Source: Escherichia coli (GTDB lineage Bacteria > Pseudomonadota > Gammaproteobacteria > Enterobacterales > Enterobacteriaceae). Taken from it: a DNA stretch of 64,000 nucleotides. Location: assembly GCF_003334765.1 (NCBI RefSeq), contig NZ_QOWT01000013.1; one strand, written 5' to 3'. The notes beneath the pieces were generated by a model that was not told where the DNA came from, searched no databases, and saw only the letters and a program-made list of their open reading frames with translations. Made by a program: the position numbers and the translations under genes. Below, piece after piece: positions 12,578-64,000 of this stretch. The first letter of the stretch is position 1; each line of letters starts with the position of its first letter.

Positions 12578-13357
12578 ATGCTTTTTACACTGAAAAAAGT
12601 GATTGGCAATATGTTGCTGCCACTTCCGCTGATGTTGTTGATTATTGGCGCTGGCCTGGCGCTGCTGTGGTTTAGCCGTTTTCAAAAAACCGGGAAGATT
12701 TTTATTAGCATTGGGTGGCTGGCGCTCTTGTTATTGAGTTTGCAACCGGTAGCCGACCGCCTGCTGCGTCCCATCGAAAGCACCTATCCGACATGGAATA
12801 ATTCGCAAAAAGTGGACTATATCGTGGTGCTCGGAGGTGGTTATACCTGGAACCCGCAGTGGGCACCGAGCTCTAATTTAATCAATAACAGTCTGCCACG
12901 CCTGAATGAAGGTATTCGCTTATGGCGCGAAAATCCGGGATCAAAACTGATCTTCACGGGAGGCGTAGCAAAAACCAATACGGTGAGTACAGCGGAAGTA
13001 GGTGCCAGAGTTGCGCAATCGCTGGGCGTGCCGCGCGAGCAAATTATCACCCTGGATTTGCCAAAAGATACCGAAGAAGAAGCTGCAGCAGTGAAACAGG
13101 CGATTGGTGACGCCCCTTTCCTGCTGGTGACCTCCGCATCACATCTGCCGCGGGCGATGATCTTTTTTCAGCAGGAAGGGTTAAATCCGCTACCAGCCCC
13201 GGCGAATCAGTTGGCCATCGACTCGCCGCTTAACCCGTGGGAACGGGCAATCCCTTCTCCGGTCTGGTTGATGCATAGCGATCGTGTTGGCTATGAAACG
13301 CTTGGCCGTATCTGGCAGTGGCTAAAAGGTTCGTCAGGCGAGCCACGGCAAGAGTGA
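12578..13357 (+). CDS. elyC: envelope biogenesis factor ElyC (YcbC, DUF218)
   Basis: 259-aa ORF with N-terminal TM segments; K-12 position between smtA and ycbJ. Confidence 0.85.
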   Translation: MLFTLKKVIGNMLLPLPLMLLIIGAGLALLWFSRFQKTGKIFISIGWLALLLLSLQPVADRLLRPIESTYPTWNNSQKVDYIVVLGGGYTWNPQWAPSSNLINNSLPRLNEGIRLWRENPGSKLIFTGGVAKTNTVSTAEVGARVAQSLGVPREQIITLDLPKDTEEEAAAVKQAIGDAPFLLVTSASHLPRAMIFFQQEGLNPLPAPANQLAIDSPLNPWERAIPSPVWLMHSDRVGYETLGRIWQWLKGSSGEPRQE

Positions 13358-60007: not shown

Positions 60008-60095
60008 GGTGAGGTGTCCGAGTGGCTGAAGGAGCACGCCTGGAAAGTGTGTATACGGCAACGTATCGGGGGTTCGAATCCCCCCCTCACCGCCA
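60008..60095 (+). tRNA. serW: tRNA-Ser (anticodon GGA)
   Basis: 88-nt cloverleaf by hand: acceptor GGTGAGG/CCTCACC, anticodon loop CUGGAAA (GGA), long variable arm, T-loop GGTTCGAATCC, encoded 3' CCA. Confidence 0.93.
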
Positions 60096-60245: not shown

Positions 60246-61091
60246 CTATACTGCCAGCATGCCAGGATAGTGTCTGGCAATAATATCATTAAGCCTGTCA
60301 ACCAGTTCTGGTTTTCTGAACGTGATATGCGCGGAGCCCTTCTTAAAGTATCTGATGCTGAACATCTCATCTTCATAGCACGCTTTACCCTGAACAGACC
60401 GGATATGGTCATCCAGATGAATGATGATATTTTCCCGGTTGTCGGGGACTGGTTTGCCACTGAACAGATGCAGCATTCTTTCCAGGTCGGCAAGTCGGTC
60501 GGTCTGTTGTCCGCTGTTCAGATGAATCCCCCACCGGTCCCACCTCACCAGATTGTTGACGATAATTTTACTGCCAAATTTACAGGGTGAGTTGGTTTTG
60601 TAATTCCAGCTCAGCACTCTGAAGACGTTGATCACTCCTCGCTCAAACACGTCATCCTTATTCTGGTGCAGTTGCTCAAATGTGCTCCAAATGTTCGCTT
60701 CACTGATTTCCGGAAAGTTATCGTACTCCAGTGAGCGGTACCATGTATCACGGGCCTGCGCATCCATTAATGACAGCATCCCGGAACGTTGCATCAGGTC
60801 ACGCCAGATTTCGCGATCGAGATTGCGGGTGATGGCTTTCATTGCGGTTTCCGGTTTCTCCATGAGCCAGCAGCCGCAGCGAAAATCCTGTTTCATGGCC
60901 CAGTCCCGGGCGGTTTTACCGCCAATGCTTTCCGTCAGTACCGAGATTTCAGCCAGTTGCCGGATAAGTGTGTCGATTTGCAGCAGCGCACTCTTTCGTA
61001 CAGCCAGAATGTGGCGGATACTGGTTGAGCAGATAACGTCCGTATGTCCGTTGACCAGTTCCGGGCGGGAGATTGTGATATCTGACATCAT
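60246..61091 (-). CDS. hypothetical 281-aa island protein of unknown function (not a K-12 gene at this locus)
   Basis: Clean 281-aa ORF with AAGGA Shine-Dalgarno 8-9 nt upstream of ATGATG start; soluble, no TM or catalytic motif I can assign; may correspond to an uncharacterised family often annotated at the end of cbtA-type island modules, which I cannot verify. Confidence 0.6.
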   Translation of the reverse strand: MMSDITISRPELVNGHTDVICSTSIRHILAVRKSALLQIDTLIRQLAEISVLTESIGGKTARDWAMKQDFRCGCWLMEKPETAMKAITRNLDREIWRDLMQRSGMLSLMDAQARDTWYRSLEYDNFPEISEANIWSTFEQLHQNKDDVFERGVINVFRVLSWNYKTNSPCKFGSKIIVNNLVRWDRWGIHLNSGQQTDRLADLERMLHLFSGKPVPDNRENIIIHLDDHIRSVQGKACYEDEMFSIRYFKKGSAHITFRKPELVDRLNDIIARHYPGMLAV

Positions 61092-61112: not shown

Positions 61113-61143
61113 AACGAAAACGCCAGCCGTATTCAGGCTGGCG
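61113..61143 (-). terminator. Rho-independent terminator between the small-ORF operon and the 281-aa gene
   Basis: Minus-strand hairpin cgccagcc-tgaatac-ggctggcg followed by ttttcgttt. Confidence 0.65.
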
Positions 61144-61172
61144 TCAGTGGAATGAAGTCTGGTGAGTAAGAC

Positions 61173-61370
61173 TCACCTGTTCTGTTGCAGAAGCTGCTGT
61201 TGGCGCAGGGTACGGATATCTTCCCTGGCCTGTTCAATGCAGGGCAGCAGTGCTGCTGAATCCGTTTTATCCTCATCGGTGTCGAAGATAATCCCTGATT
61301 CGCAGTCAATATTGTCCTGCATCCACGCAATCAGAATATCCAGCGCCGTTTCTGTGGTTAATGATTTCAT
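61173..61370 (-). CDS. hypothetical small acidic protein (65 aa)
   Basis: Internal start MKSLTTETALDILIAWMQDN... of six-frame ORF 61173..61601; highly acidic (DNIDCESGIIFDTDEDKTD); start 16 nt after stop of the preceding 83-aa ORF. Confidence 0.45.
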   Translation of the reverse strand: MKSLTTETALDILIAWMQDNIDCESGIIFDTDEDKTDSAALLPCIEQAREDIRTLRQQQLLQQNR

Positions 61371-61386: not shown

Positions 61387-61638
61387 TTACCAGTCGAAAG
61401 TGGGGAACCCCGGCAGACATTCTGCGCCGGCGTCCAGATGAATGAGACTGACGCCATAACGCCGGGTGAGAGTGACGACCAGACGACGGAACGTTCTTGA
61501 CAGGCCCAGGCGTTTAAGCCGCAGAACCGGGTACGACCATGCATCGGTACGTAACAGATACCAGTCGCGGGCTTTTTCCCGTACGGTGGAGGATAGCTCA
61601 TGCAGTGTATACACGGTGGTGGTGATAATTCTGCTCAT
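61387..61638 (-). CDS. hypothetical small basic protein (83 aa)
   Basis: ORF starts 18 nt downstream of the YeeT-like gene; Arg-rich; overlaps an alternative-frame 142-aa ORF so the coding frame is uncertain. Confidence 0.4.
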   Translation of the reverse strand: MSRIITTTVYTLHELSSTVREKARDWYLLRTDAWSYPVLRLKRLGLSRTFRRLVVTLTRRYGVSLIHLDAGAECLPGFPTFDW

Positions 61639-61656: not shown

Positions 61657-61878
61657 TCAGTTCAGGGTGACGTTCATCAGCCGGACATACGGGCCAAAAC
61701 TGTCCTTACGGCGTTCAGCAAACACGGCCAGCACACCGGGAATATCCTGCACTTCACGACCGGTATACGTCTCAGCACTGCCGTGCCAGCGGTACTTACC
61801 GGTGCAGAACGGAAATAGACGGGGTGCAGGATGCTGTTGGTGAATACGCATGGCTTCACCACGGGTGATAATTTTCAT
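61657..61878 (-). CDS. YeeT/DUF987-family small protein
   Basis: 73-aa ORF MKIITRGEAMRIHQQHP... matching my recollection of the YeeT-type protein that precedes cbeA/cbtA modules in CP4-like islands. Confidence 0.7.
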   Translation of the reverse strand: MKIITRGEAMRIHQQHPAPRLFPFCTGKYRWHGSAETYTGREVQDIPGVLAVFAERRKDSFGPYVRLMNVTLN

Positions 61879-61940: not shown

Positions 61941-62417
61941 TTAAAGCAGACCATGTTCGGCAAAGGAGAAAACCTGGTTGCCACCGACTATCAGATGGTC
62001 CGGCACCCGGATATCCACCAGGCCCAGTGCCTGTACCAGACGTTCGGTGATAAGCCGGTCTGCCTTACTGGGTGTGACTTCACCGGACGGGTGATTGTGT
62101 GCCAGTACCACGGCAGCGGCATTGTGGTACAGGGCGCGTTTAATCACTTCCCGGGGATGGACTTCCGTGCGGTTGATGGTGCCGGTGAAGAGGGTTTCAC
62201 CGGCAATCAGCTGATTCTGGTTGTTCAGATACAGCACCCGGAATTCTTCACGCTCCAGTCCCGCCATGTTCAGAATCAGCCATTCCCGTGCTGCACGGGT
62301 GGAGGTGAAGGCCACGCCGGGTTCATGAAGATGGCGGTCCAGGGTTTTCAGGGCCCGTTGAATGAGGCTGCGCTCGCCGGGCGTCATCTCTCCGGGCAGA
62401 AAGGAAAGTTGTTGCAT
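61941..62417 (-). CDS. RadC-like JAB-domain protein (YeeS/YfjY/YkfG family)
   Basis: JAMM motif HNHPSG; start chosen at MQQLSFLPGE preceded by GGAGG SD (alternative ATG at 62432 overlaps antirestriction stop). Confidence 0.85.
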   Translation of the reverse strand: MQQLSFLPGEMTPGERSLIQRALKTLDRHLHEPGVAFTSTRAAREWLILNMAGLEREEFRVLYLNNQNQLIAGETLFTGTINRTEVHPREVIKRALYHNAAAVVLAHNHPSGEVTPSKADRLITERLVQALGLVDIRVPDHLIVGGNQVFSFAEHGLL

Positions 62418-62432
62418 TGTCCCTGCCTCCAT

Positions 62433-62906
62433 TCAGTCGATGATGCGCATAATGGCGCTGCATTCCGGATGCTGCAGGGCGTAATCCCGCAGCCGGTAAT
62501 AATGAACCGTCATGGCATAATTCTCTGTACGACAGGCGTGATGGCTGTACGCCATCAGACAGGCGGCAATGCCGGCGGCTTCCGGGCTCATTTCAGCGCG
62601 GTTACCGTTCATGACGTTAAACAGCACCCATGTTTCGTCATCATCGTCATCCGGTTCGGGTGCCATAAATGCGCCACCGTTGTTCAGGGTGTACAGATTC
62701 CAGATACCACCGCAGTAGTCTTCGCACAGACGGTCCATCCAGCCGAAGACACGGGGCTCCAGGGTCACCCACTGTGGAATGAGGCCAAAGTGCTGCGGCC
62801 AGAAGCTGATGCGCTGTTCATCAGGGACGAGGGTGGCAACCAGTTGTTGCAGGTCAGTCTCCGGTGCACAGGCCGAAGAGGTGGTGTTCTGAGACAATGT
62901 TTTCAT
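62433..62906 (-). CDS. antirestriction protein (KlcA/ArdB-like, YfjX/YeeR family)
   Basis: Internal start MKTLSQNTTSS... (158 aa) within six-frame ORF 62433..63287; the 5' extension overlaps the upstream DUF932-like gene and is taken as non-coding. Confidence 0.8.
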   Translation of the reverse strand: MKTLSQNTTSSACAPETDLQQLVATLVPDEQRISFWPQHFGLIPQWVTLEPRVFGWMDRLCEDYCGGIWNLYTLNNGGAFMAPEPDDDDDETWVLFNVMNGNRAEMSPEAAGIAACLMAYSHHACRTENYAMTVHYYRLRDYALQHPECSAIMRIID

Positions 62907-63247
62907 GTATGAAATCCTTGTAATGTGAATAAATGAGAGGGAGTAAAGGTCGGGAGCTGGCAACATCACGTTCATCACTGACCGTGATGACCCGGTAATA
63001 TCAGGGATGAATGATATTCGGCTGAAATTCCGGACAGCCGTACGCGTAACCGTTCCGGTCACAGACGGATGGCCAGATGCCATTGCCTGTATACTCAGTC
63101 TGCACAGACTGATTTCTCCGGGACGGTAAAACAGACGGGTACACCAGGCGCACAGGTCATCATCAGAAATGGAACGACACCCCGGCAGCGCCTCCGGGGC
63201 GTCGGGTGATTCTGGTGCCTGAATCACGCCTTCAGGGACATGCTGCA

Positions 63248-64000
63248 TCAGCGCAGGCTCTCCAGCAGCATTTCTGCCATTACCCACAATGCGCGGTTGA
63301 GCTTAATATCGGTGTCGATGTTGTGAATGGCACGGGTGTGGATACGTTTTCCTTTTGCACTGCGGCCGGAAATCCCGCCTTTCAGCATATTCTCCTGGAT
63401 GGTCTGATAAGTACTCCACAGGTCCTTACCGTAATCCTCCCGGCGTCGTGGCGTCAGAATGTCGGCGGTGGTGACGGGCCGATGTTCGTCACCATAACGG
63501 TAAGTCAGTGCCGCCTGTGCCAGCTCCTGGCGTTCCGGTGGCGGCAGGACCAGCGACTGCATGGCATCACGCTTCTCCTCTATCCGGTCAAACACGCCCA
63601 CCACCTCGTAAGCCCCTTCGATAACTTTCTCCACTACATTTCCCCGGTGTGGAACACGCACTTCCCCCAGAGACTGGCCACAGACGCACCCGTTCTGGCA
63701 GACGAACCTGAAGTAACCCGGCAGCATCTGGTAGCTGGAGGTACCGTCATGAGAGTTGAGCAGAATAATTTCAGGGACATGTTCTCCGTTTATCTCTCCG
63801 GCCCGCCGCAGACGCAGCATGTGTTTTGTGTATCCCCGGCGGCCCGGGTCGCGCACGCGGGTCTGGCAGGCGAAGAATGGCTGAAAACCTTCCTGCTGCA
63901 GGCTTTCCAGTACGGTGATGGTGGGAATGTACGCATATCGTTTACTGCGGGAAGTATGCCGGTCTTCACCGAAAATACTGGGAACATAGTGCATCAGTTC
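63248..64000 (-). CDS. DUF932-family island protein (YafZ/YfjQ-like), 5' end probably beyond window
   Basis: ORF 63248..63994 (248 aa from first visible Met MHYVPSIFGEDRH); K-12 homologues as I recall them are about 273 aa with about 24 residues N-terminal to this motif, so likely truncated by the window edge. Confidence 0.6.
   Translation of the reverse strand, partial: ELMHYVPSIFGEDRHTSRSKRYAYIPTITVLESLQQEGFQPFFACQTRVRDPGRRGYTKHMLRLRRAGEINGEHVPEIILLNSHDGTSSYQMLPGYFRFVCQNGCVCGQSLGEVRVPHRGNVVEKVIEGAYEVVGVFDRIEEKRDAMQSLVLPPPERQELAQAALTYRYGDEHRPVTTADILTPRRREDYGKDLWSTYQTIQENMLKGGISGRSAKGKRIHTRAIHNIDTDIKLNRALWVMAEMLLESLR

Follow-up and report, generated by a model that had tools for sequence, protein, structure and literature searches.

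The genes considered here are well-known members of CP4-type islands: an ArdB/KlcA-like antirestriction gene, a RadC-like JAB gene and a DUF987 gene. Their counterparts in Escherichia coli K-12 provide the closest points of comparison. In CP4-6, the genes yafX-ykfG-ykfH keep the order antirestriction, RadC-like JAB (158 aa) and DUF987, and a tRNA stands at the island end. In CP4-57, the paralogous antirestriction and RadC-like JAB pair yfjX-yfjY precedes DUF987 and a type IV toxin-antitoxin pair, and the cluster yfjXY-ypjJ-yfjZ-ypjF was described as one operon, lfgABCDE, in which a kanamycin insertion in lfgA is polar on lfgB (PMC10846083). LfgB (YfjY) was reported as a protease degrading the antitoxin MqsA, and this cleavage is a functional claim now attached to an otherwise uncharacterised paralogue family (PMC10846083). 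The current K-12 MG1655 RefSeq record (L084 5387..5869) has adopted the names lfgA and lfgB for yfjX and yfjY and describes lfgB as 'CP4-57 prophage protease'. In CP4-44, finally, yeeS-yeeT includes the closest paralogue of the RadC-like gene studied below, with 97.2% DNA identity over the shared part; the antirestriction gene is missing, however, and yeeS codes for 148 aa and overlaps yeeR by ATGA, which indicates that the yeeS 5' end has been rearranged.

We analysed a stretch of 64,000 nucleotides from an E. coli contig (NZ_QOWT01000013.1), hereafter the window, in which a CP4-type island adjoining tRNA-Ser carries the antirestriction and RadC-like gene pair. On the minus strand and towards the tRNA, the island carries DUF932, a frameshifted small ORF, the antirestriction gene, the RadC-like gene, DUF987, an 83-aa ORF, DUF957 and DUF4942. 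The main features are as follows, HH45 being the E. coli strain whose related locus served as reference.

63248..64000, minus strand: DUF932 gene, its 5' end cut by the window edge (phrog_12094 at 1e-121)
62433..62906, minus strand: ArdB/KlcA-like antirestriction gene, 157 aa (Pfam PF03230, E=6.7e-37)
61941..62417, minus strand: RadC-like JAB-domain gene, 158 aa (Pfam PF04002, E=9.3e-45, residues 38-157)
61657..61878, minus strand: DUF987 (YeeT/YkfH/YpjJ-like) gene (Pfam PF06174, E=8.9e-39)
61387..61638, minus strand: 83-aa fusion ORF at an in-frame 1728-bp deletion (breakpoint 61559/61560 by blastn against HH45)
61173..61370, minus strand: DUF957 gene, 65 aa (collinear with the PGAP CDS WP_000772027.1 of HH45)
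61119..61145, minus strand: terminator-like hairpin after DUF957, a GC-rich 10-bp stem then a T-rich tail (consensus scan only)
60246..61091, minus strand: DUF4942 gene, 281 aa, the island gene closest to the tRNA (collinear with the PGAP DUF4942 CDS of HH45 and of a diverged E. coli paralogous locus, L002)
60008..60095, plus strand: tRNA-Ser(GGA) (ARAGORN, Rfam RF00005)

The tRNA adjoins infA, aat and cydC, with the island border beside it, and an Rfam scan of the region matched this tRNA and no other known RNA element. The 1.4-kb module is common: 4864 of 5426 complete E. coli genomes carry it, at 13,285 places in all and with three copies per genome as the median, and the gene order antirestriction, RadC-like, DUF987 is kept across Enterobacterales. 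A wider conservation of the antirestriction-RadC pairing was looked for beyond Enterobacterales. In loci with at most 57% RadC identity, no ArdB homologue is detectable upstream at E<1e-5, so these loci are uninformative on the junction.

The names antirestriction, RadC-like and YeeT-like, initially given from the letters of the DNA, were borne out by the profiles PF03230, PF04002 and PF06174 (DUF987). The antirestriction protein covers model positions 1-92 of 92 and thus holds a full-length Antirestrict domain; it also matches the PHROG anti-restriction protein (2e-63), and PGAP annotates the same 474-nt CDS in HH45. It shares the full PF03230 domain with KlcA/ArdB of conjugative plasmids but is chromosomal and lodged in an island, and its antirestriction role is a predicted one. 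The RadC-like protein scores 149 bits against TIGR00608, above the cut-off of 133.85, and matches the RadC homologue of PDB entry 2qlc (E=6e-26). Its JAMM motif H-x-H-x7-S-x2-D is intact in the translation (HNHPSGEVTPSKAD). Against the full-length RadC/YicR equivalog NF000642, it remains at 160.5 bits, below the cut-off of 180, and covers only profile positions 88-211 of 212, the C-terminal half. Judged by these matches, the gene is therefore a short island-type paralogue and not the housekeeping RadC/YicR. The protease function reported for LfgB belongs to the CP4-57 paralogue. The DUF987 gene begins 62 nt downstream of the RadC-like stop, behind a Shine-Dalgarno (SD) sequence with a duplex energy of -7.1 kcal/mol. 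A search for NCBIfam names of the small proteins gave no match. On the plus strand, a 319-aa ORF (61953..62912) runs antisense to the full length of the RadC-like gene and to the greater part of the antirestriction gene; it is not among the PGAP features of the related HH45 and L002 loci and is treated as what looks like a shadow ORF in GC-rich coding DNA.

At the junction of the two genes, the minus strand reads ...ATC GAC TGA ATG GAG GCA GGG ACA ATG CAA CAA CTT TCC..., and offers two start codons in one frame.

62435..62433, minus strand: antirestriction stop TGA, the end of ORF 62433..62906
62430..62432, minus strand: ATG1, an in-frame upstream ATG directly abutting the antirestriction TGA, not the conserved start
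62426..62430, minus strand: Shine-Dalgarno GGAGG, 8 nt upstream of ATG2
62415..62417, minus strand: ATG2, the conserved start of the RadC-like gene, which is the PGAP start and is invariant in the sampled junctions

A sequence-only reading of this DNA had pointed to two candidate ATGs 15 nt apart within 62417..62435, the second of them behind a strong GGAGG. Both points are exact, the GGAGG lying at 62430..62426, 8 nt before ATG2, and the gap from the antirestriction stop to ATG2 being 15 nt. The same reading was headed 'stop/start overlap'. The abutment of ATG1 (62432) and the stop (62433..62435) stands, but there is no overlap: the two codons form TGAATG and share no base, contrary to junctions of the ATGA or TGATG type. 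The two-ATG pattern is no more than chance expectation. The window composition predicts an in-frame ATG within five codons in 8% of cases, 13% are observed for window ATGs opening at least 100 codons, and 18 of 100 shuffles contain the 10-mer TGAATGGAGG one or more times.

The comparison with K-12 is instructive on the choice between the two codons. In ykfG, the junction TGA CCGAAGGAGCAACAG ATG AAA CAG CTT TCC shares with the window the 15-nt spacer, an SD before the ATG (AAGGAG in ykfG) and then [KQ]QLSFLPGEMTP. The ykfG spacer, in contrast, begins with CCG instead of ATG, leaving no start ambiguity. In yfjY/lfgB, the spacer is only 8 nt long, TAA GGATACTC ATGATG, and the 160-aa product has another N-terminus. 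A full-text literature search found no experimental mapping of the ykfG, yeeS or yfjY start, and these K-12 copies do not possess ATG1.

Ribosome binding and annotation both point to ATG2. The predicted duplex with the 16S rRNA 3' tail has an energy of -9.3 kcal/mol for ATG2, within the top 1.5% of random positions, versus +0.4 kcal/mol for ATG1. In near-identical E. coli loci, including HH45, the PGAP CDS is 477 nt long, corresponding to 158 aa and a start at ATG2. The largest clusters of RadC-like proteins (6367, 2676 and 2332 members, among others) are likewise 158 aa long, and an exact-sequence look-up found at least 1000 contigs with the 158-aa form and two with the 163-aa form. The 163-aa entries look like older annotations, such as BAI55430.1 of E. 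coli SE15. Cluster sizes and contig counts reflect the choices of gene callers, and the DNA itself was therefore compared too.

The arrangement TGA-N15-ATG, together with a purine-rich SD (GGAGG, AGAGG or AAGGAG), is retained in each of 14 orthologues belonging to other genera (Citrobacter, Mixta, Siccibacter, Buttiauxella, Leclercia, Tenebrionibacter, Yersinia, Cedecea and Enterobacter), whose amino acid identity to the RadC-like protein is 76-82%. Directly behind the TGA, these orthologues have CCG, ACG, CCA, ACA, CTG or AAA and never a canonical start, so that ATG1 is absent from 14 of 14 as it is from K-12 ykfG; two of the fourteen (L012, L016) even carry an in-frame TAA inside the spacer. 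In L002, a diverged E. coli paralogue, the spacer starts with AAG, so that ATG1 is missing, and its 14 nt do not make up a whole number of codons. In more diverged loci of Serratia, Rahnella and Buttiauxella, the junction reads ...ATTGATTAA GGAGTTTTGCC ATG GAG AAA (also written ...GATTAA GGAGTTTTGCC ATG); the spacer here measures 11 nt, and no start codon lies upstream. At a length of 14 or 11 nt, the spacer does not preserve the frame of ATG1. The purine-rich SD core (GGAG, AGAGG or AAGGAG), for its part, stands at the same place in all aligned orthologues.

Metagenomes were scanned with a pattern anchored on the antirestriction 3' end and on RadC-like codons 4-6, with no constraint on the start region. 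This yielded, among the matches listed, a non-random and Escherichia-dominated sample of 120 junctions, with spacers of 15, 14 and 11 nt. ATG2 is present in 120 of these 120 listed junctions, and ATG1 in 99 of them, confined to Escherichia-lineage copies; among the 21 listed junctions without ATG1, 14 have a spacer length that is not a multiple of three. Among the junctions whose spacer is 15 nt long, 44 are unique; ATG2 is found in all 44 and ATG1 in 32, again in Escherichia-lineage copies. Over these 44 junctions, RadC-like codons 2-16 show entropies of 0.21, 0.07 and 0.60 at codon positions 1, 2 and 3, a coding signature, while the spacer shows 0.71, 0.94 and 0.61, with no periodicity and a variability about five times that of its flanks. 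The hypothetical extension peptides vary accordingly from one copy to another (MEAGT, MERST, METGT, MERSI, MEAET, KGAGT, PEEQR and others).

Homologue alignment, which the sequence-only reading had itself named as the test, thus finds no conservation of the longer N-terminus from ATG1, and the ambiguity is resolved in favour of the SD-preceded ATG2. On this comparative evidence, the RadC-like gene very probably starts at ATG2 (62417) and gives a 158-aa product, the 15-nt stretch being a non-coding, SD-bearing spacer. The role of this spacer would be to carry the Shine-Dalgarno GGAGG, 8 nt before the start. ATG1 would be a by-product of the Escherichia lineage, created by the letters AT between the TGA and the first G of the SD, and would owe its place in the frame solely to the chance length of 15 nt in the present spacer variant.

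A functional start at ATG1 (62432) would instead suppose an SD-less re-initiation directly after the TGA, producing a 163-aa protein with a MEAGT extension. Re-initiation after termination is well established for nearby start codons, TGA and ATG1 do adjoin, ATG1 occurs in 99 of the 120 listed junctions of the Escherichia-dominated metagenomic sample, and a few older annotations, such as that of E. coli SE15, retain the 163-aa form. Yet ATG1 is missing in all 14 other-genus orthologues, in K-12 ykfG and in 21 of the 120 listed junctions, spacers of 14 or 11 nt shift it out of frame or delete it, and two species place a TAA in its frame. The spacer moreover shows no coding periodicity, the extension peptide is not conserved, and ATG1 has no SD (+0.4 kcal/mol), whereas the strong SD immediately downstream would place the 30S subunit on ATG2. 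With this balance, we regard a start at ATG1 as highly improbable.

A second alternative would retain ATG2 as the major start, with ATG1 giving a minor coupled isoform, or would allow occasional UGA read-through into an antirestriction-RadC fusion. The two ORFs do share one frame with the TGA as their sole separator, and ATG1 persists in two distinct Escherichia spacer families. The shared frame is nevertheless not conserved, given the 14- or 11-nt spacers and the in-frame TAA codons, and fused proteins in databases are nearly all singletons. As for a second start, the five-residue extension has no evident function and precedes an N-terminal region outside the domain, since the Pfam domain begins at residue 38. 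A dual start or read-through is given very little credence, and the comparison with relatives supports neither. Restricted to the Escherichia copies bearing TGAATGGAG, there is a slim chance that occasional re-initiation at ATG1 or UGA read-through yields a minor extended RadC-like isoform or an ArdB-RadC fusion; if so, the amount of this isoform or fusion would track antirestriction translation.

Two observations touch on the same stop codon. The UGA between the antirestriction and RadC-like ORFs (62433..62435, minus strand) is succeeded by an A. Fused ArdB+RadC predictions (PF03230+PF04002, for instance P0020 and P0041) are present in the protein database as singleton entries, and are suspected to be assembly or frameshift artefacts.

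The start at ATG2 also bears on how the two genes may be linked in translation. The coupling formerly suggested on account of ATG1 abutting the stop is not supported by the comparison with relatives, and the stop and ATG1 do not overlap. Some translational coupling of ATG2 to antirestriction translation is nonetheless plausible, and likely, since no more than 15 nt, with the SD among them, separate stop and start. A ribosome terminating at the antirestriction TGA would sit over the SD and the ATG2 start. Obligatory coupling through the unfolding of an SD-masking mRNA structure was considered and set aside: the 120-nt junction folds no better than shuffled sequences (z=0.45), and the one predicted pairing, CCCUGC/GCAGGG, disappears in GAGAGAAGCACA, the second of the common spacer variants.

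The start at ATG2 agrees with current annotation, and the observation is ordinary and already known, with nothing novel to it. Its significance is limited to annotation: the 158-aa pipeline call is correct, and the few entries of 163 aa in databases reach too far upstream. This implies no new biology. The correct N-terminus is useful to anyone cloning or expressing RadC-like proteins, given the report on LfgB as a protease acting on MqsA.

Beyond the junction, the antirestriction gene and the genes following it through DUF957 have the layout of a single operon, with one strand, short gaps (15, 62, 18 and 16 nt) and no intervening terminator. The hairpin at 61145..61119 is the only minus-strand terminator-like site between the antirestriction start and DUF4942; located between DUF957 and DUF4942, it may mark the end of the transcription unit. 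A consensus scan for a sigma-70-like promoter upstream of the antirestriction gene, on the minus strand, returned none, a result which is uninformative rather than negative. From the short same-strand gaps, the position of the hairpin after DUF957 and the treatment of the K-12 paralogues as one operon (PMC10846083, PMC5371832), we infer that the antirestriction, RadC-like and DUF987 genes and the small genes are probably transcribed as one unit. The compact operon proposed earlier fits these data and publications. One of the 'small ORFs' counted in it is a remnant of a deletion fusion and not a native gene.

This remnant is the 83-aa ORF, whose translation has the N-terminus of a 214-aa hypothetical protein and the C-terminus of a DUF5983 protein (MSRIITTTVYTLHELSSTVREKARDWY followed by LLRTDAWSYPVLRL...), the two apparently fused at a short GY/WY microhomology. 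Compared with HH45, the missing 1728 bp comprise the CbtA toxin gene, a YeeU-family antitoxin gene, most of the gene for the 214-aa hypothetical protein and the 5' part of the DUF5983 gene; the antitoxin gene is itself a frameshifted pseudogene in HH45. This loss leaves the island copy of the window without its type IV toxin-antitoxin module, whereas CP4-6 of K-12 keeps the YafW/YkfI pair downstream.

Upstream of the antirestriction gene, the window differs from HH45 as well. In HH45, where the PGAP DUF932 CDS is 822 nt long, an 81-aa hypothetical ORF (WP_001164966.1) is found between the DUF932 and antirestriction genes. Its counterpart in the window (63001..63287, minus strand) is frameshifted near codon 53, and its 5' part runs stop-free into the antirestriction frame, giving a 284-aa ORF at 62433..63287. 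The segment 63001..63287 is probably a pseudogenised small ORF and not part of a longer ArdB, since an AAGGA SD still precedes the ArdB ATG at 62906. On the tRNA side, the DUF4942 product matches PHROG families of unknown function and, weakly, a PHROG DNA methyltransferase family (4.7e-17); its gene is intact in the window (281 aa) and frameshifted in HH45.
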